This document shows, one piece after another, positions 19,702 to 32,000 of a DNA stretch of 32,000 bases (positions are counted from its first letter, which is position 1; the number at the start of each line of letters is the position of its first letter). Both the position numbers and the translations under genes were made by a program. Source of the stretch: Candidatus Harpocratesius repetitus (GTDB taxonomy: Archaea > Asgardarchaeota > Lokiarchaeia > Sigyniarchaeales > Promethearchaeaceae); NCBI GenBank assembly GCA_021498095.1, contig JAIZWK010000001.1:840001-872000 (forward strand). The letters run 5' to 3'. The notes beneath the pieces were generated by a model that was not told the origin of the DNA, did no database searches, and worked only from the letters and a program-made list of their open reading frames with translations.

Positions 19702-21177
19702 TCAGATATTTTGATTTAAAATTGTTCTTAACTGATTTAAAGTGAAGGGTTTTCGCAGAACCCCTAAAAATCCGAATTTCTTTGGATTAGCCATTATTGG
19801 ATCATTTGAATAACCACTTGCTACTATCGCTCGAATTTTTGGATCATACTCTTTTAATTCTGCAATAACTTCCTTTCCACCTAATCCACCTGGAATTGTT
19901 AGATCCAATATAACTAATCCAAAAGGTGAATTATTTTTATAAGCTTCCTTATAAATTCTTATAGTATCTTCTCCTTTTTCGGTAAAAACTGCGTCATAAT
20001 TCAAATGATGTATTAATTTTTCCATAATTCTTTGAATAGAATGATCATCTTCTAGAATAAGAATAGAATTTGATATTTTTTCTTCATTATTTGCTTTTTT
20101 CTTCTGAGAAGTGCTATTTTCTGAATATATTTCAATTGAATCTTGAGCAGGTAAATATATACAAAATTCTGTGTAATGATTATTTTTATCAGTTGATGTA
20201 TTAAAACATATAAAACCTTGATGGAATTTTACAATCGAATAAACAGTTGCTAAACCTAAGCCTGAACCCATCTTTTTTGTTGTGAAATAAGGATCAAAAA
20301 TTTTTGAATGATATTTCTCTGGGATACCCGTTCCAGAGTCCCGTATTTTAATTTCGATATATCGACCTGGGGGAATGAGTATTCGATGAAAATATCCCAT
20401 CTTTTTGTAAACTGGAGTTTTTATTTCGACATTATGAAAATGAAGAAAAATTTCTCCCCCATTAGGCATTGATTGATCCGCATTAATTATTAAATTCGAT
20501 ATTACTTGAGATATTTGATTTGCATCTACTACAGATAACCATAGTTTATGATCAAAATCTAAAGTACATTTTGATCTAGATCCCCGTAATGCAAAAATTG
20601 CAGTTTCTGTAATTACTTTTGTTAAATCCGTTGGTTTTTTTACCGGAGCACCTCCTGTAGCAAATGTAAGGAGTTGTGTAGTTAAATTTTGTGCCCGCAT
20701 GATGGATTTTTCAGCATCTTTCAAAGTTTCTCTTATAAAATTTAAATCGTCTTCTTCTAATGCAAGAGTTATATTTCCTAATAACGCTGCAAGAATATTA
20801 TTAAAATCGTGTGCAATTCCTCCAGCTAAAGTTCCAATACTTTCTAATTTTTCCTGATTAAGTTGATATTCTGTTAATTCAGTGGGTGTCTTATTATCTT
20901 CAAGAAATAAAATCATTTCTTTTGAATCTGTTTTCTCTGAGAGAAGATCTATATTTACAATATAGGGGAACTTTTGCCCGTGTTTAGTAATAATTTCCAT
21001 TTCATATTTTCCAGAAAATGTTTTATTCTGTTGAAATGATTCAAAAATATTCTTTCCAAGAGATTGATAATCAGGAGCTATAAAATTTAAAATAGATTTA
21101 CCAATAATTTCATCCAAAGTCATCTTAAAGACATTTAGACCTGCTGAATTTACTTGTAATATCTTTAATGAATTCAA
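19702..21177 (-). CDS. hybrid sensor kinase PAS-HisKA-HATPase-REC
   Basis: GGIAHDFNNIL H-box, NLIINADQSM N-box, DSGTGI and DPYFTTK.MGSGLGL G-boxes, REC with EDD, LDLTIPG, SGY and KPF. The true start is probably upstream (frame open to 21261). Confidence 0.93.
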   Translation of the reverse strand: MNSLKILQVNSAGLNVFKMTLDEIIGKSILNFIAPDYQSLGKNIFESFQQNKTFSGKYEMEIITKHGQKFPYIVNIDLLSEKTDSKEMILFLEDNKTPTELTEYQLNQEKLESIGTLAGGIAHDFNNILAALLGNITLALEEDDLNFIRETLKDAEKSIMRAQNLTTQLLTFATGGAPVKKPTDLTKVITETAIFALRGSRSKCTLDFDHKLWLSVVDANQISQVISNLIINADQSMPNGGEIFLHFHNVEIKTPVYKKMGYFHRILIPPGRYIEIKIRDSGTGIPEKYHSKIFDPYFTTKKMGSGLGLATVYSIVKFHQGFICFNTSTDKNNHYTEFCIYLPAQDSIEIYSENSTSQKKKANNEEKISNSILILEDDHSIQRIMEKLIHHLNYDAVFTEKGEDTIRIYKEAYKNNSPFGLVILDLTIPGGLGGKEVIAELKEYDPKIRAIVASGYSNDPIMANPKKFGFLGVLRKPFTLNQLRTILNQNI

Positions 21178-22433: not shown

Positions 22434-24008
22434 ATGATTTTAGAAAAAATTGAAGGTAGCCAATCACCTTCACCTTCTTCATCTGATCTTATTGGGCTCC
22501 GACGTAAGTCTAAAGAAGGTGGAGGGCCATTAAAAATCGAATCTCAACACCGGAAAGGAAAAATGACTGCTCGGGAGCGAATTGATTTATTAATTGATCC
22601 TGGAACCTTCACAGAAATCGATGAGTTTATACTTCATCGCTCCACTAAATTTGGGATGGAACATCAAAAATACTATGGTGATGGTGTTGTCACGGGATTT
22701 GGTTTCATCAATGGGAGAAAAGTATTCTTATATAGTCAAGATTTTACTGTTATGGGCGGAAGTTTAGGGAATGCACACGCTAAGAAAATTTGTAAAATTA
22801 TGGATCTTGCAATTAAAAATGGTTGTCCTATAATTGCTCTTCTTGATTCTGGGGGTGCCAGAATTCAAGAGGGTGTAGATTCTTTAGCTGGATTTGGCGA
22901 AATCTTCCATCGAAATGTTCAAGCTTCAGGTGTCATTCCTCAAATATCCGTTATTTTAGGTTCATGTGCAGGAGGTGCGGTCTATAGTCCTGCACTTACA
23001 GATTTCGTCATCATGGGTGGGGATCATGCATATATGTTCGTTACTGGGCCTCAAGTTGTCGAATCTGTGACAGGAGAACAAGTTTCTTTTAATGATCTTG
23101 GGGGGAAGGATATTCATGCGAATATTTCGGGTGTTGCACATCTGGTCGCTAATTCTGAAGAACAAACCTTGGATCTGGTAAAAAAATTACTATCTTACAT
23201 CCCTTCCAATAATTTAATGGATGCACCACGAGGAAATACTGAATTAGAGCCAGATCAAACCATAAATCTTGATACAATAATTCCAGAAAATGAAAATGAA
23301 CCTTATGATATGAAATTTGTAATTAAAGGAATTATTGATAAAGGCTCTTTCTTTGAAATTTTTCCTTCTTTTGCTAAAAATATCATCACAGGATTTGGAC
23401 GTTTACAAGGGAATACAATTGGAATAATTGCTAATCAACCAATGGTTTTGGGAGGCGCAATAGACTTTCATGCTTCTGATAAAAGTGCCAGATTCATCCG
23501 ATTTTGTGATTCGTTTAATATTCCTATTTTGACATTAGTTGATGTTCCTGGTTTCATGCCTGGAACTAAACAAGAATATGCTGGTATAATCCGGCATGGA
23601 GCTAAGATGATATTTGCATATTCTGAAGCAACAGTTCCAAAAATCACGATTATTACTAGAAAAGCATATGGGGGTGCATATATCGTTATGGCTTCAAAGC
23701 ATTTGGGCGCAGATATTAATTTAGCGTGGAATTCTGCCCAAATTGCCGTTATGGGTGCTGAAGGTGCATGTAAAATTCTTTATCGAAAAAAAATTCAAAA
23801 ATCTGACGATCCAGAGAAAGAATTAGAAAGATATATTGCACAATATAAACGAGAGTTTTCAAATCCATTTCAAGTTGCTGAATTGGGCTATGTTGATAAA
23901 GTCATTTTTCCTTCAGAATCCCGTTCAATTATTTTAAATTCGCTGCAATTTCTTATAAATAAGCGTGAAAATGTCCCAAAAAGAAAGCATGGTAATTTTC
24001 CTGTCTGA
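22434..24008 (+). CDS. acyl-CoA carboxylase carboxyltransferase subunit (PccB/AccD type)
   Basis: GKMTARERID.L.DPG.F.E, DGVVTGFG, QDFTVMGGSLG, DSGGARIQEG, GSCAGGAVYSPALTD, DVPGFMPG, RKAYGGAY, KHGNFP. Confidence 0.97.
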   Translation: MILEKIEGSQSPSPSSSDLIGLRRKSKEGGGPLKIESQHRKGKMTARERIDLLIDPGTFTEIDEFILHRSTKFGMEHQKYYGDGVVTGFGFINGRKVFLYSQDFTVMGGSLGNAHAKKICKIMDLAIKNGCPIIALLDSGGARIQEGVDSLAGFGEIFHRNVQASGVIPQISVILGSCAGGAVYSPALTDFVIMGGDHAYMFVTGPQVVESVTGEQVSFNDLGGKDIHANISGVAHLVANSEEQTLDLVKKLLSYIPSNNLMDAPRGNTELEPDQTINLDTIIPENENEPYDMKFVIKGIIDKGSFFEIFPSFAKNIITGFGRLQGNTIGIIANQPMVLGGAIDFHASDKSARFIRFCDSFNIPILTLVDVPGFMPGTKQEYAGIIRHGAKMIFAYSEATVPKITIITRKAYGGAYIVMASKHLGADINLAWNSAQIAVMGAEGACKILYRKKIQKSDDPEKELERYIAQYKREFSNPFQVAELGYVDKVIFPSESRSIILNSLQFLINKRENVPKRKHGNFPV

Positions 24009-24086: not shown

Positions 24087-26180
24087 ATGAAAAAACCACA
24101 TGAAATACTTAAAATTTTAAACAACACATTGCCGATCTGGGGATATAATCCTCAAGGTTTTGAAGATATAACTGTTCTTGTAACCCTCTGCGAAAATAAT
24201 GCTGTAGGTATATTAAATACTGAATCTCTTTCTATTTTACAGACTAATAAAATAATTAAACGAATATCAAAACAAATACAACCTTCAAAAATATGGGGAA
24301 TTCGCATTACTAATGAAGATTTCATCTCTGATTTAGATTTTAGCACAAATAATGTGATTGCAATTTGTTCGTTTGTTCCATCAAGTAAAAGTCTTGAAAT
24401 TTTAAAAAAGAAATCACTGCTTATCTGTGCAGAAGTGTTGACTTCACAAGAAGCAAAATCTAAAGCAAAATGGGCCGATTTTTTCTTAGTTCGCGGAAAT
24501 GAAGCCGGTGGTTTTGTTAGTAATCGAAATTCTTTCATTCAAATTCAAGAATTCTACAAATTGGGATATAGCTTTATCATTGAAGGTGGATTTGGCATAT
24601 ACAATGTTGGTGCGGCCTTAATTGGTGGTGCTCTTGGTGTAGTTTATGAATCACAATTGTATTTATTAAATGAATCTCCATTAAGTCATCAATTTAAATC
24701 TTATATTAAAACCCTGCAAGAAAATGATTTCTACTTGTTTGCTGAAAGTGAACATTTTAACTTTCGTTTGATTGGAAAATTGGCCAATAAATCTATTCGA
24801 GAAGTTAAATTGAAAGAAAAAGACTTTTATAAGCAAATTCTTGAAAAAGAAGGAGATATTACCCGAGAAGAGTTCACAAAAATTTTATTTAGTGTTATTC
24901 AAAAAGATCGGGGAAAACAAATTGGATTTCCGGATTTTTCATCAAAATACCCTAAACATTCATTTCTTCCTTGTGATCATGGTATCATTTTTGCAAATCA
25001 GATTGCTGAGCAATTTCAGTCCATTTCAAGATTTATTCAAAAAATAACTGAAATTATTATTCGACAACATAAATTAATTAAAAAACAGTGGCCTTTTCAA
25101 GAATCTAGCCCATTTGCTCAGAATATAAATGTCAAATATCCTATCATCCAAGGTCCAATGGCAAATATTACTGAATCGATTGAATTTGCCCAAATTGTTG
25201 CAGATCACGGAGCATTACCGACATTTGCTTTAGGGGGTTTGATGGGACCTGAAGCAGATGCATTATTGGAAAAAATCTCAAATTCATCTTTACAAAACTA
25301 CCAATATATGGCTGGAATTATTGGATTAGAAGTTGTTAAAAAACGTCGTGAACTTCAATTAGAATCTATAAAAAAACACAATGTTCCCTTTACATTAATT
25401 GCAGCAGGTTCAGTTGATTTAGCCAAACAAGTAATTAGACAAGGTGAAAGAGTTTTTTTACATACTCCTGCTCTATCTATGTTTAAAGAAGCCGTGAAAA
25501 ACCAAATTGAATTTTTAATTTTAGAAGGGAGTGAATGTGGAGGTCATATTGGAACCCTTTCATCTTGGATATTGTGGGAAAACATACTTCAATACTGTAA
25601 AAAAGAACAACAATCATTTTCTCAAAAAATTAACGTTATTTTCGCAGGAGGTATTATTAATGAAACCAGCAGTGCGATGTTGGCGATGATGATTGGTGAT
25701 CATCTCGATATAATCAATCCTGGAATTCAGATGGGAACATCCTATCTTTTCACTCCAGAAATTACATCTTCAAAGGCATTATCTCCCCTTTATCAGAATC
25801 TATTGTTGAATCATGACTCAACTCGTGTCATAGGCGCAACTGTAAATACACGAGCACGTGTAATTCCATCGATATTTAGTTCAGAAACAATCAAAAAAGA
25901 ACTTCATCGAATAACAGAAGAAATTCCAATTTCAAAGCGTAAAGAACTTTATGAAAAGGATAATTTGGGTGCTTTGCGAATTGCTGCACAAGCAGAAATC
26001 TGGAATAATGATCATATTCCAGGAACAGGGACTACTCAATTTATTCCAATATCTCCAGAAAAACAAGAAAAACTAGGTGCATTCATGACTGGCGAGTCAC
26101 TAACTCTTCGTACGACAGTCGTCCCTATAAAAAATTTACACTACGATATTACCAAAGGAGGATTTCATAAAGTTTCAAAT
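24087..26180 (+). other. domains: tandem FabK/nitronate-monooxygenase-like (PfaD-type) enoyl-reductase barrels
   Basis: Barrel 1 has RGNEAGGF, IIEGGFG and GALGV. Barrel 2 has YPIIQGPM, LEGSECGGH, IFAGGI and GIQMGTSY. Boundaries are approximate. Confidence 0.8.
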
Positions 26181-29100
26181 CTTCAAAAATATAATTCATT
26201 GAATCAAATTCTTAATTTTAAGAATCAATTAAAATCCAAGCCTGTTTTTGAAAAAACAAAAAAAAAATTCGCCGATTCTCGGGTTGCAATAGTAGGAATT
26301 GGTGGAGTATTTCCTGATGCTTCAAATATTAATGAATTCTGGGATAATATTTTATCAGAGAAATATTCTATTACTGAGGTTCCTAAAGATCGATGGAATT
26401 ATGAAATATATTTCAGTGAAGATCGAAATCAAAAAGATAAAACTTACACTAAAATTGGGGGTTTTATCAAGGACTTTAAATTCAAATCAATTAAATTTCG
26501 AATCCCCCCACAAATGGCTAAGAGAATGGATCCTGTCCAGAAATGGGCTTTAACTGCAGCTAAAGAGGCGTTAATGGATGCAAATTATCCTATTGATGGA
26601 AAACAATCTCTATCATTGGCTGTTATTATCGGAAACTCTTTAGGGGGGGAAATTCAAAGATATAATGATAAAAGGGTCTTCTTCAACGAAATTAATCACT
26701 ATCTATATCAAGCAGAAAAGAAAAATATCGGAGATTCAAACTCTATTCGGAGAATTAAATCTTATCTTGAAGAAAATATAATCAAAAATATTCTTCCTAT
26801 TAATGAAGATACAATGCCTGGTGAATTATCAAATATAATTGCTGGCAGAATTAGTAATGTCTTCAATTTAAACGGAAAGAATTTAACTACTGATGCAGCA
26901 TGTGCTTCAAGTCTTGCAGCTTTAGATACAGCGGTAAAGGGTCTTCTATTAGGAGATTACGACGCAGTTTTAGCCGGTGGGGCTGATCATTCAATGGATC
27001 CATCTGTTTTTATAAAATTCTCAAAGATTGGGGCGCTTTCCGCAAAAAAGTCTTGTCCATTTGATGCAGAAGCAGATGGTTTTGTTATGGGAGAAGGAGC
27101 AGGTTTTGTTGTACTTAAACGATTATCTGATGCAATTCGCGATAATAATAAAATTTATGCGGTAATTAGGGGAATAGGTGCTTCTTCAGATGGTAGAGGT
27201 AAAGGAATTACTGCACCTAACCTACAAGGTCAAAAAATGGCTGTCATACGAGCGCTAGACTCCGCTAAAATTCAAGAAAAAGATCTTCAATATATTGAAT
27301 GTCATGGTACTTCCACTGTAATAGGAGATGCTACTGAATTAATGGTGCTTCAAGAATTACTCCACTCTAAAAATCCATCTCAGAAAATTGCAATTGGTTC
27401 TGTTAAAAGTCAAATTGGGCACTTAAAAAGTGCAGCTGCTATCGCTTCAATTATCAAAACGAGTCTGGCACTTTATCATAAAATTATCCCTCCTTCTATA
27501 AATTTTAATATTCCAAATCCCAAAATTGACTGGGATAATGTTCCTTTTTATGTAAATACTCACGCTAAAGAATGGATTCGTCCTCAAAATTCCATAAGGA
27601 GAGCAGGTGTTTCAGCTTTTGGATTTGGTGGGACCAATTTTCATGTCATATTAGAAGAGTTTTGTCCCGAATCTTTAAACAATTCTATAAATTCTATTCC
27701 AGAATATATTCCATATTCTGAGGGAATCATTCAAACGAATCAAAAAAGTGCATTTTCATTTGATAATTCTGATCCTTCTTTAGTATTTATGTTTAGTGGT
27801 CAAGGAAGTCAATATGTCGGGATGGGTCATGAATTATATGAGACAATTCCAGAAATACGAGATATCTTAAATCGTGCTAATGAAATTTGTCAGAGTTTTG
27901 GAGATTTTAACCTTCTTCAAATTTTATTTGGTGATAAATCGAAATCAAAAAGTGAAAATCAAAAAATATTAACTCAAACACAGTTCACTCAACCAGCGAT
28001 TTTTAGCTTGGAAATTGCCTTATTCAAATATTTAAATAACCGTGGGATTGTCCCAGGAATTGTTGCCGGTCATAGTTTGGGAGAATTCTCTGCCCTTGTT
28101 ACTGCAGGAGTGATGGATTTTGAAGATGCATTAAAAGCTGTCATTATTCGAGGTCAAGCAATGGGTACATCCACTCCTGATTCTAAATGTGGAATGGCTG
28201 CCCTATTGTGTCCAATTTCTCAGGTAGAAGAAATTCTAAAAAAAGTTAAAGAGGGAAATGTTTCGATTTCTAATTATAATTCTCCTACACAGACTGTTAT
28301 TTCAGGTGATTTGGTAGGTATTCAAAATGCCTTAAAAGTATGTCAAAAAGAAAATGTTAGAGCAAAACAATTAAATGTGTCACAAGCGTTTCATTCAAAA
28401 TTTGTGGCATCTGCTGGTTCTAAATTAGCGGAGTATTTAAATACCATCAAATTTCATAAACCAAATATTCCAGTATACAGCAATGTCTTAGGCAGTGCAT
28501 ACCCGACTAATTCTGATAAAATAAAGGGGATTTTATTAGATCAAATTACCTCACCTGTACGTTGGACTGACGAGATAGAGCAGATTTATAATGCGGGAGG
28601 AAGAAAATTTGTAGAAGTTGGACCTAAAAAAGCCTTATTCTACTTTGCTAAAGAAATTTTGAAAAAAGCAAAAAATGTTTCTCAATTCTTTACTTTAACT
28701 CCAAAAAAATCTGAAGTAGAATATCTAAAACAAATAACAGACGAAATTAGTAATCAAATGCAAAATAGAGAGCAAAATTTTTCCTTAAAATCCAAATATC
28801 TCTTTTCTAAACAGAATTTACCGAAGATACTTAGCCAAAATAAAGAAATATCAAATAATAATGTGTTTGATGAATTAATTTCTGATAAAACTATCCAAAG
28901 TCTTAGTACACAACCTCATTTTAGAGAATTTCTTGCTCAACAAAAAGAAATACTCGCCCCCATGTTAAAAGCATCCTATTCTCAATTTATTCGCTTGTAT
29001 AGACAAGAACAAGAACGAAAAAAGAAAGAATCGTCACAATTTATCCAAAATACACTACAAATTGGAGTAACCGGTGTTGGATTGGGAATTCCAGGAAAAA

Positions 29101-32000
29101 ATCGAAATGTATTCGATGATTCTAACATTATTGCAATTTTAAATGGGGAAAATTTTATTGAACCTCTTCCTGAAGAAGTTAAAAAAGGAATATTAGATAA
29201 AAATATTGTTCGATTAAATAAAACTTCTAATGGAGATGCCTCTTTTATAGAAATAAAGGATATTTCTCAAGTTATTCATCTTGCTGGGCAAATTGGTGCA
29301 TTTGATCCCAAAAAAGATTTTCTTCTGGATGATAAACTGCTGAATGCTCTGGATATCACTTCAAAATTAGCAATTGGCGCCGGATTGGAAGCTTTGAAAG
29401 ATGCTGGAATTCCTTTAGTAAAATCAAAGATTACTACAACAACAGGTAAGATAATTTCTGGAGATTGGGCATTACCAGAAGAACTACAAAGAGATACCGG
29501 TGTTATTTTTGCCTCTGCATTTCCTGGATTGGACAATTTGGTAAAGGATCTTACCACTCACTTAACACAACAGTTAAAATTAGAAACATTTGAGAAATTT
29601 AATCAAAAGTTTTCCAAATTTCTAAATGAAATTTCTCATTCCAAAATTAAAAAAGAGTTAGAAGAATGGTATTATGAAAATAAAGCCTTAATTTTTGGTG
29701 ATAAGAAAGATCTTATACATTTTAACCGTGCATTTCTCTTTCGAATCTTATCCATGGGTCATTCCCAATTTGCACAAATTATCAAAGCTAAAGGGCCAAA
29801 TACACAAGTAAATGCTGCATGTGCATCTACTACTAATGCTTTCGCAATTGCTGAAGACTGGATTAGAACTGGGCGCTGTAATCGAGTAATTGTGATTTCT
29901 GGAGATTGTCCAACTACAAAAAGTCTCTTTCCATGGCTTGGAGCAGGATTTGTTGCAAGTGGAGCTGGAACAATCAAACAAAACTTAACAGATGCAGTTT
30001 TACCCTTTGGAATTGGTCGAAATGGCCTTATTGCTGGAGCGGGTGCGTCTGCATTTGTTCTAGAAACTCAATCTGAATCAAATAGACGTGGGATTAAGCC
30101 AATCGTTGATTTATTAGGAACACAAATAAGCAATAGTGCATATCATGGATCTCGTCTTGATAAACTAGACATTACGGAAGAATTCAATCGTTTTATTACA
30201 ACAATGGTTAATCAACACAAAATCACAAAATCTGAAATTGCTCGTAAAGGTATGTTTGTCAGTCATGAAACTTACACACCGGCTCGAGGTGGAAGTTCTG
30301 AATCAGAATTGGAAGCATTATCTAATACTTTCGGACCAGATGTGAGTAAATTACTCATTATCAACACCAAAGGATTTACTGGTCATCTTATGGGAGTTGG
30401 TATGGAAGAAGCTGTTGCGATAAAATCAATTGAGTACGGGATTATTCCTCCAATTGCAAATTTTGGTAAAATAGATCCAAAATATAGCAAGTTTTACTTC
30501 TCAACTGGGATTAAAGAACGAAAAGATTATGCAATTCGGTTTGCTGCAGGTTTTGGATCCCAAATTGCAATTTTAATGTTCCGAAAAAATACACCCACTA
30601 ATAGAAAGGATGAAAAAGTGTATCATGCTTGGCTTCAATCTGTTGCAGGTTCAACTTCTCTCTTTTTAGATGGCCGAGTTTTAAAAGTAGACTCAAAACA
30701 GCAAATTTCATTCTCACAAAAGCAATCAATTCCATCTATTTTACAAACATCAAAATCAAATGAAACAATTTTAGCCACCTTGATTCAAATTATTGCTGAA
30801 AAAACAGGTTATGATATCTCAGATCTTGAACCACAGTACCATTTAGAAGAAGATTTAGGGATTGATACGATTAAACAAGCAGAGATTTTCGGAGAAATTG
30901 GAGAGAAATGGAATATTGAGGAAAATCAGTCTTGGAATATTAGTGAAATGCAAAGTATTGCGGATATAGCCAAAGTATTATCGCGAATGGTGAATGACTC
31001 ATCTCAGATTTCATCCCAGACTTCAAGTAATAATCATATTAATCAAAATAATTGGGAAGAAAAAGTCCGGGCAATTATTTCGGAAATTACAGGTTATGAT
31101 CATGAAGATATTCAATTGGATTTTGATTTAGAAGAAGATCTGGGGATTGATACCATAAAACAAGCAGAGATTTTTGGTAGAATTAGAGAAGAATGGCAAA
31201 TTCCTGAAGAGACTAGTATCAATCTTACAGAATTTCGTAGTATTAATGATATTCTTGCCTTTTTATCTAAAAATTTCTCTGGTTCCAGCTCTCAAACTAA
31301 AAATACCATTGATCTAAGTACATCAGAAACAAATATTGACCAACCAACTCAAATCAAAGAAGAGGAGATCAAGAAAATTATATCTGAAGTGACTGGTTAT
31401 GATCTTGAAGATATTCAATCTGATTTTGATTTAGAAGAAGATCTGGGGATTGATACCATAAAACAAGCCGAAATTTTTGGGCGCATTAGAGAAGAATGGC
31501 AAATCTCTGAAGATACTCAAATAAATCTAGCTGATTTTCGAACGATTCAAGATATTTTAACTCTTTTGAATTCAACTAAAAAAGTAAATAATTCAATAGA
31601 TAATAGTGTTGCAACTGTCGATAATTCTCAGATCTCTAAAAGTAATGATAAAAATAGAAGTGAATCCAATATAGATCAAGTTAAATCAATTATTGCAGAA
31701 ATTACAGGTTATGATTCAGAAGATTTGGAACTAGATTTTGATTTAGAGGAAGATCTGGGGATTGATACCATAAAACAAGCGGAAATATTTGGTCAGATTC
31801 GTGAGAAATGGCAAATTTCAGATGAATCTTTGATTAATATCGCTGAATTTCGGACAATAAGAGATATTTTAAATTACATCACAAAAATTAATGAAAGAAA
31901 TCTAAGTTCCCAAGAAATTCCCCAAATTGCGAAATCATCAAATGAAAATAGAACAGTAAACGAAATTATAGAATCACGAATAAAATCGATAATATCAAGA
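24087..32000 (+). CDS. giant type I FAS/PKS-like synthase: pseudoER-ER-KS-AT-KS-ACPn (3'-partial, at least 2638 aa; not in the ORF track)
   Basis: GAGGT at 24075-24079, ATG 24087. Hand translation stays open to the window end, and every motif falls in the same frame: YPIIQGPM (25137), ECGGH (25533), DAACASS (26892), HGT (27303), GH (27417), GQGSQ (27798), GHSLG (28068), NAACAST (29811), four GIDTIKQ. Confidence 0.95.
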   Translation, partial: MKKPHEILKILNNTLPIWGYNPQGFEDITVLVTLCENNAVGILNTESLSILQTNKIIKRISKQIQPSKIWGIRITNEDFISDLDFSTNNVIAICSFVPSSKSLEILKKKSLLICAEVLTSQEAKSKAKWADFFLVRGNEAGGFVSNRNSFIQIQEFYKLGYSFIIEGGFGIYNVGAALIGGALGVVYESQLYLLNESPLSHQFKSYIKTLQENDFYLFAESEHFNFRLIGKLANKSIREVKLKEKDFYKQILEKEGDITREEFTKILFSVIQKDRGKQIGFPDFSSKYPKHSFLPCDHGIIFANQIAEQFQSISRFIQKITEIIIRQHKLIKKQWPFQESSPFAQNINVKYPIIQGPMANITESIEFAQIVADHGALPTFALGGLMGPEADALLEKISNSSLQNYQYMAGIIGLEVVKKRRELQLESIKKHNVPFTLIAAGSVDLAKQVIRQGERVFLHTPALSMFKEAVKNQIEFLILEGSECGGHIGTLSSWILWENILQYCKKEQQSFSQKINVIFAGGIINETSSAMLAMMIGDHLDIINPGIQMGTSYLFTPEITSSKALSPLYQNLLLNHDSTRVIGATVNTRARVIPSIFSSETIKKELHRITEEIPISKRKELYEKDNLGALRIAAQAEIWNNDHIPGTGTTQFIPISPEKQEKLGAFMTGESLTLRTTVVPIKNLHYDITKGGFHKVSNLQKYNSLNQILNFKNQLKSKPVFEKTKKKFADSRVAIVGIGGVFPDASNINEFWDNILSEKYSITEVPKDRWNYEIYFSEDRNQKDKTYTKIGGFIKDFKFKSIKFRIPPQMAKRMDPVQKWALTAAKEALMDANYPIDGKQSLSLAVIIGNSLGGEIQRYNDKRVFFNEINHYLYQAEKKNIGDSNSIRRIKSYLEENIIKNILPINEDTMPGELSNIIAGRISNVFNLNGKNLTTDAACASSLAALDTAVKGLLLGDYDAVLAGGADHSMDPSVFIKFSKIGALSAKKSCPFDAEADGFVMGEGAGFVVLKRLSDAIRDNNKIYAVIRGIGASSDGRGKGITAPNLQGQKMAVIRALDSAKIQEKDLQYIECHGTSTVIGDATELMVLQELLHSKNPSQKIAIGSVKSQIGHLKSAAAIASIIKTSLALYHKIIPPSINFNIPNPKIDWDNVPFYVNTHAKEWIRPQNSIRRAGVSAFGFGGTNFHVILEEFCPESLNNSINSIPEYIPYSEGIIQTNQKSAFSFDNSDPSLVFMFSGQGSQYVGMGHELYETIPEIRDILNRANEICQSFGDFNLLQILFGDKSKSKSENQKILTQTQFTQPAIFSLEIALFKYLNNRGIVPGIVAGHSLGEFSALVTAGVMDFEDALKAVIIRGQAMGTSTPDSKCGMAALLCPISQVEEILKKVKEGNVSISNYNSPTQTVISGDLVGIQNALKVCQKENVRAKQLNVSQAFHSKFVASAGSKLAEYLNTIKFHKPNIPVYSNVLGSAYPTNSDKIKGILLDQITSPVRWTDEIEQIYNAGGRKFVEVGPKKALFYFAKEILKKAKNVSQFFTLTPKKSEVEYLKQITDEISNQMQNREQNFSLKSKYLFSKQNLPKILSQNKEISNNNVFDELISDKTIQSLSTQPHFREFLAQQKEILAPMLKASYSQFIRLYRQEQERKKKESSQFIQNTLQIGVTGVGLGIPGKNRNVFDDSNIIAILNGENFIEPLPEEVKKGILDKNIVRLNKTSNGDASFIEIKDISQVIHLAGQIGAFDPKKDFLLDDKLLNALDITSKLAIGAGLEALKDAGIPLVKSKITTTTGKIISGDWALPEELQRDTGVIFASAFPGLDNLVKDLTTHLTQQLKLETFEKFNQKFSKFLNEISHSKIKKELEEWYYENKALIFGDKKDLIHFNRAFLFRILSMGHSQFAQIIKAKGPNTQVNAACASTTNAFAIAEDWIRTGRCNRVIVISGDCPTTKSLFPWLGAGFVASGAGTIKQNLTDAVLPFGIGRNGLIAGAGASAFVLETQSESNRRGIKPIVDLLGTQISNSAYHGSRLDKLDITEEFNRFITTMVNQHKITKSEIARKGMFVSHETYTPARGGSSESELEALSNTFGPDVSKLLIINTKGFTGHLMGVGMEEAVAIKSIEYGIIPPIANFGKIDPKYSKFYFSTGIKERKDYAIRFAAGFGSQIAILMFRKNTPTNRKDEKVYHAWLQSVAGSTSLFLDGRVLKVDSKQQISFSQKQSIPSILQTSKSNETILATLIQIIAEKTGYDISDLEPQYHLEEDLGIDTIKQAEIFGEIGEKWNIEENQSWNISEMQSIADIAKVLSRMVNDSSQISSQTSSNNHINQNNWEEKVRAIISEITGYDHEDIQLDFDLEEDLGIDTIKQAEIFGRIREEWQIPEETSINLTEFRSINDILAFLSKNFSGSSSQTKNTIDLSTSETNIDQPTQIKEEEIKKIISEVTGYDLEDIQSDFDLEEDLGIDTIKQAEIFGRIREEWQISEDTQINLADFRTIQDILTLLNSTKKVNNSIDNSVATVDNSQISKSNDKNRSESNIDQVKSIIAEITGYDSEDLELDFDLEEDLGIDTIKQAEIFGQIREKWQISDESLINIAEFRTIRDILNYITKINERNLSSQEIPQIAKSSNENRTVNEIIESRIKSIISR
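26280..27660 (+). other. domain: ketosynthase 1 (type I / Pfa-like), Cys-His-His intact
   Basis: RVAIVGIGGVFPDA start, MDPVQ, DAAC (Cys 26901), ECHGT (His 27303), KSQIGHLK (His 27420), SAFGFGGTNFH. Confidence 0.95.
27783..28680 (+). other. domain: acyltransferase (malonyl-CoA:ACP transacylase-like)
   Basis: FMFSGQGSQY, TQPAIF, GHSLGE (Ser 28074), Arg in IRG, SQAFHS, PVRW, FVEVGP. Confidence 0.93.
29058..30587 (+). other. domain: ketosynthase 2 (FabF-like), Cys-His-His intact
   Basis: IGVTGVG start, EALKDAG, NAAC (Cys 29820), SHET (His 30264), TKGFTGHLMG (His 30384), AAGFGS. Confidence 0.88.
30762..32000 (+). repeat. tandem ACP domains: 4 complete plus the probable start of a fifth, all with GIDT
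   Basis: TGY...LEEDLGIDTIKQAEIFG with the Thr codon at 30867, 31152, 31455 and 31767 (spacing 95, 101 and 104 aa). IKSIISR at the window end resembles helix 1 of another copy. Confidence 0.92.

Follow-up and report, generated by a model that had tools for sequence, protein, structure and literature searches.

Threonine in place of the acceptor serine in tandem carrier domains of an Asgard megasynthase

To our knowledge, the carrier proteins of fatty-acid, polyketide and non-ribosomal peptide synthesis all hold their pantetheine arm on a serine, as the textbook rule has it. A megasynthase gene of the Asgard archaeon Candidatus Harpocratesius repetitus raises the question of whether this rule is general, since its tandem acyl carrier protein (ACP) domains carry a threonine at that place. 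The gene lies at the end of the 32,000-nucleotide stretch analysed here (the window; contig JAIZWK010000001.1, positions 840,001 to 872,000). Is the threonine an error or a sign of decay, the mark of a domain that no longer carries acyl chains, or itself the site of attachment? We consider it probable, from sequence comparisons, that Thr is the phosphopantetheine-attachment site and is served by a dedicated Sfp-type phosphopantetheinyl transferase (PPTase).

Threonine at the acceptor-serine position of five tandem ACPs

The megasynthase open reading frame (ORF) starts at position 24087 of the plus strand, on which all domains described below are encoded, and runs uninterrupted for 3795 amino acids to a stop at window-equivalent position 35474. 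The window holds its 5′ 2638 codons (24087..32000, from the ORF list, translation and Pfam) and the remainder was taken from the same genome. Pfam searches and motif inspection gave the domain order ER-KS-AT-KS2-ACPx5-KR-DH-PPTase, where ER is an enoyl reductase, KS a ketosynthase, AT an acyltransferase, KS2 a second KS-like domain, KR a ketoreductase and DH a dehydratase.

All five ACPs read EEDLGIDTIKQAEIFG, with Thr at the place of the phosphopantetheinyl-Ser. Four are complete in the window: ACP1 (30747..31010; Thr2261, codon ACG at 30867-30869), ACP2 (31032..31295; Thr2356, ACC at 31152-31154), ACP3 (31335..31598; Thr2457, ACC at 31455-31457) and ACP4 (31647..31910; Thr2561, ACC at 31767-31769), their LGIDTI motifs standing at residues 2257, 2352, 2453 and 2557 of the synthase frame. 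The N-terminal part of ACP5 (31947..32000) runs past the window end, and its Thr2661 is encoded by ACC at window-equivalent 32067-32069. The initial annotation had described Thr in the four complete copies, with ACG in the first and ACC in the others, and the codons are indeed so.

Each of the five domains scores above the cut-off of the Pfam PP-binding family PF00550 (21.2-33.6 bits against 20.8), and the canonical acceptor Ser of this family is absent from all five, being replaced by Thr. In alignments with solved ACPs (PigH 5y08, 2cnr and 2ehs), this Thr falls on their phosphopantetheinyl-Ser. In an AlphaFold2 model of ACP5, built from an alignment of 68 diverse homologous domains in which the Thr is invariant, it is the first residue of helix II (Thr41; predicted local distance difference test score, pLDDT, 90). 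The top structural matches of this model in the PDB are all ACPs, with template modelling (TM) scores of 0.66-0.86.

Could the substitution be an artefact, arising from faulty sequencing or assembly or from decay of the gene? We found no support for this: the frame of 3795 codons is unbroken, the trait recurs in hundreds of relatives, and public contigs that cover the array and come from the probable source sample are identical to it. In addition, a strain of about 96% identity that was sequenced in another study, and a metagenome of marine sediment, show the changes 30869 G>A and 31769 C>T, both synonymous third-base changes at Thr codons. Reads with Ser codons had been named beforehand as a result that would refute the observation; in the contigs of these two independent studies every change at a Thr codon is synonymous, and no Ser codon at the Thr sites of the array occurs among the listed contig differences (11 less-supported ones stand outside the table). 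We therefore reject the artefact explanation, to which we leave next to no probability.

The DNA identity between the ACP copies is only 55-70% in pairwise comparison, indicating that they were not recently homogenised. Recent gene conversion was considered as the cause of the uniform Thr and ruled out by this divergence and by the commonness of the trait across phyla. Across the relatives' loci examined, all four Thr codons are in use. Ser can be reached from every one of them by a single base change, yet it is nearly absent within the Thr clade, which argues that Thr itself is favoured. The Thr pattern in the array is beyond chance, and the comparisons support its maintenance by purifying selection rather than its decay.

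How widespread is this residue? With the ACP region as query, a word-based search found 776 full-length relatives, the closest being proteins from metagenome-assembled genomes (MAGs) of Promethearchaeota (Asgard), followed by Thermoplasmatota and many bacterial groups including Acidobacteria, Deltaproteobacteria, Saprospiraceae, Anaerolineae and Elusimicrobia. When run against 1.84 billion representatives, a profile of the Thr-type domain gave 8864 matches at E <= 0.001; at E <= 1e-30 there were 1554. The GIDT motifs that the initial annotation mentioned from uncharacterised bacterial megasynthases are thus real, and are very common in both searches.

For a census of the residue, all carrier domains of 264 proteins (1221 domains) were aligned to the Thr-type profile. 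The site is Thr in 933 domains, Ser in 284 and another residue in 4, all of them degenerate extra domains. This excess of Thr over non-hydroxyl residues, the use of all four Thr codons and the synonymous-only strain changes bear out the earlier proposal of selection as opposed to decay. Per protein, 205 of the 264 are all-Thr, the synthase studied among them, and 50 are all-Ser. The latter are chiefly canonical PfaA proteins with LGIDSIKRVEIL, together with some Ser subfamilies close to the Thr consensus (for example DLGIDSVKVAEIF).

On a tree of 247 domains, two changes suffice to account for the Ser/Thr label. In a Thermoplasmatota-like group the orthologous first ACP carries Ser in three proteins (P0005, P0052 and P0056) and Thr in their sister P0019, all having the same fused PPTase. 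As judged from the census and these orthologues, the site tolerates hydroxyl residues only, and Ser and Thr are evolutionarily interchangeable.

The same three proteins are mixed, a single ACP with Ser coming before those with Thr, and this is what one might expect if Thr were a deliberately poor acceptor. The Thr domains would then remain mostly in the apo form as a brake or regulator, with a small fraction modified, or would need an extra factor; on chemical grounds a secondary hydroxyl is expected to be the slower nucleophile. Such a role fits poorly with the 205 proteins, the synthase here included, that have no Ser carrier at all, and with the near absence of the easily reached Ser from the Thr clade. 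We regard it as quite improbable.

The nearest relatives (P0004-P0021) are Asgard and Thermoplasmatota MAG proteins intermixed with those of bacterial phyla. This mixture suggests that the synthase cassette may have moved between domains of life as a whole.

A single PPTase and its candidate substrates

The organism's own genome, one contig of 4.36 Mb with a completeness score of 93.6%, was searched for carriers and PPTases. PF00550 matched only the five Thr domains, searches with PF14573 and with stand-alone Asgard ACPs gave nothing, and the rest of the megasynthase ORF past the window contains no Ser carrier. The possibility, raised in the initial annotation, of a Ser ACP downstream is thus contradicted: the ACP found there, ACP5, also carries Thr, and no other carrier was found by these searches. 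The PPTase family PF01648 was matched only by the C-terminal domain of the megasynthase itself (54.6 bits against a cut-off of 25). With only Thr carriers and a single PPTase in the genome, this enzyme has been retained without any other known substrate.

Genomes of three related Asgard archaea (G001, G002 and G031) share this arrangement, with Thr carriers only and one PPTase within the synthase ORF. Two relatives without the megasynthase have, in contrast, a small stand-alone Ser ACP (WTS[IV]SH) and, at a distance of about 6 kb, a PPTase that likewise stands alone (G011:C1:729375-735853 and G010:C1:4225703-4232197; loci L011, L013, L031 and L032), a pair that by its sequences is a different, uncharacterised Asgard carrier system. 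In this lineage a PPTase therefore occurs exactly where a carrier occurs, indicating that PPTases travel with their carriers. The PPTase is fused in 25 all-Thr relatives. In each of the three non-fused all-Thr relatives checked, all bacterial (L023-L025), the PPTase is encoded separately, one or two genes downstream, and a carboxylase gene is present as well; in L023, a Korobacteraceae locus, the PPTase gene lies at 25136-25921.

This arrangement bears on the alternative that the ACP-like domains are scaffolds or docking modules, with intermediates held on coenzyme A (CoA) or on an unrecognised carrier. The loss of the canonical Ser would be explained at once, and fatty acid synthesis that depends on ACP is generally considered to be absent from archaea. 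A scaffold, on the other hand, would leave the genome with an apparently active PPTase and no other substrate found for it. A non-carrier role would require no hydroxyl, so that the finding of a hydroxyl residue (Ser or Thr) at the site in 1217 of the 1221 domains favours carrier function. The arrays of relatives keep 3-7 ACP copies, as in polyunsaturated fatty acid (PUFA) synthases, and KS and AT are of the ACP-dependent type. By Pfam and motif inspection the KS, AT, KR, DH and ER motifs of the megasynthase are all intact; since a synthase of this kind requires a carrier, this also speaks for the ACPs as working carriers. A scaffold role thus appears unlikely.

We favour a mechanism in which the five tandem domains would be working acyl carriers of an iterative PfaA-like (‘Type R’-like) fatty-acid or polyketide synthase. 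The 4′-phosphopantetheine arm would be borne not by a Ser but by the conserved Thr that opens helix II, through its hydroxyl, and would be transferred from CoA by the Sfp-type PPTase domain fused at the C-terminus of the same polypeptide. Both the Thr-O-phosphodiester linkage and the acceptance of, or preference for, Thr by the cognate PPTase are what we infer from the sequences.

Is the fused PPTase competent for such a reaction? In a PPTase alignment (A2), residues H101, D118, E120, K156, E157 and K161 are invariant in 28 Thr-associated PPTases, the synthase's own included, corresponding to a His, a Gly-x-Asp-x-Glu and a Lys-Glu-Ala-x-x-Lys motif. The PPTase profile matches the structures of both Sfp (E 2e-18) and AcpS. 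The fused PPTase thus looks active. In the N-terminal lobe, the Thr-associated PPTases carry an AcpS-like KRxxEWxAGRxAAK motif, and they score as well against AcpS as against Sfp. Such a lobe may be unusual for an Sfp-type enzyme.

It could also be imagined that the Thr hydroxyl bears a group other than phosphopantetheine, such as an acyl chain held as an oxoester or another CoA-derived group. A strict requirement for a hydroxyl would be explained equally well in this way, and nothing more direct speaks for it. Against it stand the conserved partner, a PPTase that has the usual catalytic residues for CoA and Mg, and the use of thioesters known for the Claisen chemistry catalysed by KS domains, so that this alternative is in our view highly improbable. 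A complex predicted for the PPTase domain, CoA, Mg and ACP5 scored 0.83, with one control at 0.69; no weight was given to it for or against any reading.

Several points weigh against Thr as the attachment site. No clear change of the active-site pocket that would explain Thr was found in a comparison of 28 Thr-associated PPTases with 2 PfaE sequences. No report or biochemistry of phosphopantetheinyl-Thr in any protein was found in the open-access literature. The genome scores 93.6% for completeness, and searches with hidden Markov models (HMMs) can miss very divergent carriers. An E. coli ACP with the substitution S36T is reportedly not modified by AcpS, in work ascribed to Keating, Carey and Cronan in 1995; acceptance of Thr would then have to be a property of these particular PPTases. 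Finally, PPTases are described in the literature as modifying a conserved serine (PMC9769936).

Taken together, the proposal made in the initial annotation, a Thr-linked phosphopantetheine with a specialised PPTase, gains from the fusion of the genome's only PPTase to the synthase, while neither a distinct clade nor a Thr-specific pocket emerged from the comparison of 28 with 2 sequences. For the wider family we think it fairly probable that Thr-linked phosphopantetheine occurs naturally in tandem carriers of a very large family that spans domains of life, through an Sfp-type PPTase lineage that accepts or prefers Thr. In the organism studied here, this would be the sole carrier system and would be contained in one polypeptide.

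Related synthases and the gene neighbourhood

The catalytic domains upstream of the array are an NMO/FabK/PfaD-like ER (best Pfam stretch 25389..25868, with an ECGGH motif at 25533-25547), KS1 (Pfam, 26277..27506; active-site Cys motif at 26889-26912), AT (Pfam, 27783..28688; GHSLGE at 28068-28085) and KS2, found by Pfam with approximate boundaries 29055..30590 at the position of a chain-length factor (CLF). KS2 has kept its active-site Cys (VNAACAST, 29808-29831) and His residues; instead of being a dead CLF, it may be an active ketosynthase in its own right. Downstream of the array follow KR, a DH of the polyketide synthase (PKS) type (HxxxGxxxxP) and the C-terminal PF01648 PPTase, which covers residues 3565-3795 or so.

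This layout resembles PfaA of bacterial PUFA synthases, in which KS-AT also precede and KR-DH follow an array of tandem ACPs with matching register (EKTGY...EADLGID[ST][IV]K). The megasynthase passes the cut-off of the PfaA family TIGR02813 of NCBIfam (1052.6 against 1010.1 bits). Nevertheless, it departs from the defining features of PfaA: its ACPs have the KQAEIF motif with Thr, and neither pfaB- nor pfaC-type genes lie next to it, in comparison with true pfa loci (L026 and L027). The PfaA ACPs carry Ser, in contrast to LGIDT[IV]KQAE[ILMV]F here and in most relatives. PfaC, PfaD and PfaE are separate proteins in pfa systems, whereas ER, the second KS and the PPTase are here part of one chain. 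PfaE is visibly of a different type, with the motifs FNISH and GCDVEN in place of LSISH and GLDLEK.

Among described systems, the ‘Type R’ secondary lipid synthase cluster comes closest, and we liken the locus to it by domain order. Such clusters were reported from Koribacter, Solibacter, Elusimicrobium and Roseiflexus (Shulse and Allen 2011, PMC3098273). They are defined by KS-MAT-CLF-ACP(3-6)-KR, where MAT is the acyltransferase, with a dedicated PPTase and often an acetyl-CoA carboxylase gene in the cluster; the acceptor residue of the ACPs, whether serine or threonine, is never mentioned there (PMC3098273). The synthase studied here agrees with this domain order, including the PPTase, and has a carboxyltransferase gene upstream; the same cassette is found at the three bacterial loci with a separate PPTase gene. 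Its PPTase has the hShxH-type P1b′ motif. Differences in P1b/P1b′-type motifs of PPTases were described by Shulse and Allen (PMC3098273), and it is only by motifs of these already known types that the cognate PPTases differ from the 2 PfaE sequences. In contrast to the published clusters, the host here is an Asgard archaeon and the chain carries an N-terminal ER and a fused C-terminal PPTase; ER and DH exceed the published definition.

A PPTase in cis at the C-terminus, after KR-DH, is also known from the enediyne PKS PksE. This enzyme makes polyenes and has the layout KS-AT-ACP-KR-DH-PPTase, with a single Ser ACP and neither ER nor second KS; the likeness is to this general layout rather than to a PksE sequence. 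Compared with Sfp-type (group II) PPTases (Sfp 1qr0 and 4mrt), the fused domain has the same two-lobed organisation of about 230 residues, the Asp-x-Glu Mg triad (PMC4103896) and the KEA...K motif. It differs in its AcpS-like AGRxAAK motif in the N-terminal lobe and in its candidate substrates, which are Thr domains only, whereas the characterised Sfp-type enzymes all modify Ser.

Upstream of the synthase, 78 nt before its start, ends an acyl-CoA carboxylase carboxyltransferase gene on the same strand (22434..24008; PF01039, E 1.5e-192), which probably supplies the extender unit. Carboxylase genes flank the synthase loci of the three bacterial relatives (L023-L025) as well, and extender-unit supply thus seemingly belongs to a conserved cassette. 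A biotin/lipoate protein ligase-like gene (PF03099, 21447..22226) lies divergently on the minus strand. Just upstream of this biotin-ligase, carboxylase and synthase group, and also on the minus strand, is a gene for a hybrid PAS-HisKA-HATPase-receiver sensor kinase (19702-21177). On the other side, an alpha/beta hydrolase of 263 aa, similar to the S33, S9 and DLH types, is encoded at window-equivalent 35474-36265 (L003 11475-12266); the two genes share one base, with which the synthase stop codon ends and the hydrolase gene starts. The hydrolase is probably translationally coupled to the synthase and is a candidate chain-releasing thioesterase.

Implications for carrier proteins and for Asgard archaea

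If Thr is the attachment site, the rule that the phosphopantetheine acceptor is always Ser would be overturned, and a universal protein modification would have a new form. The scale is that of a family of thousands of members (8864 representatives at E <= 0.001), with about three quarters of the 1221 sampled domains carrying Thr. Annotation rules and mass-spectrometry searches that consider only Ser would overlook the modification, and Sfp or AcpS may fail to activate such synthases in heterologous hosts. Conversely, a Thr-specific pair of PPTase and tag could serve as an orthogonal tool for protein labelling.

The locus itself contributes a system that is closed at the level of the genome, a contrast with Asgard relatives that have a Ser ACP and PPTase pair, and synonymous changes at the Thr codons in independent strains. 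As carriers, activating enzyme and all catalytic domains are encoded by one gene, it is a convenient test object. For the organism and its relatives, the synthase bears on the question of whether Asgard archaea run an ACP-dependent pathway of the fatty-acid type.

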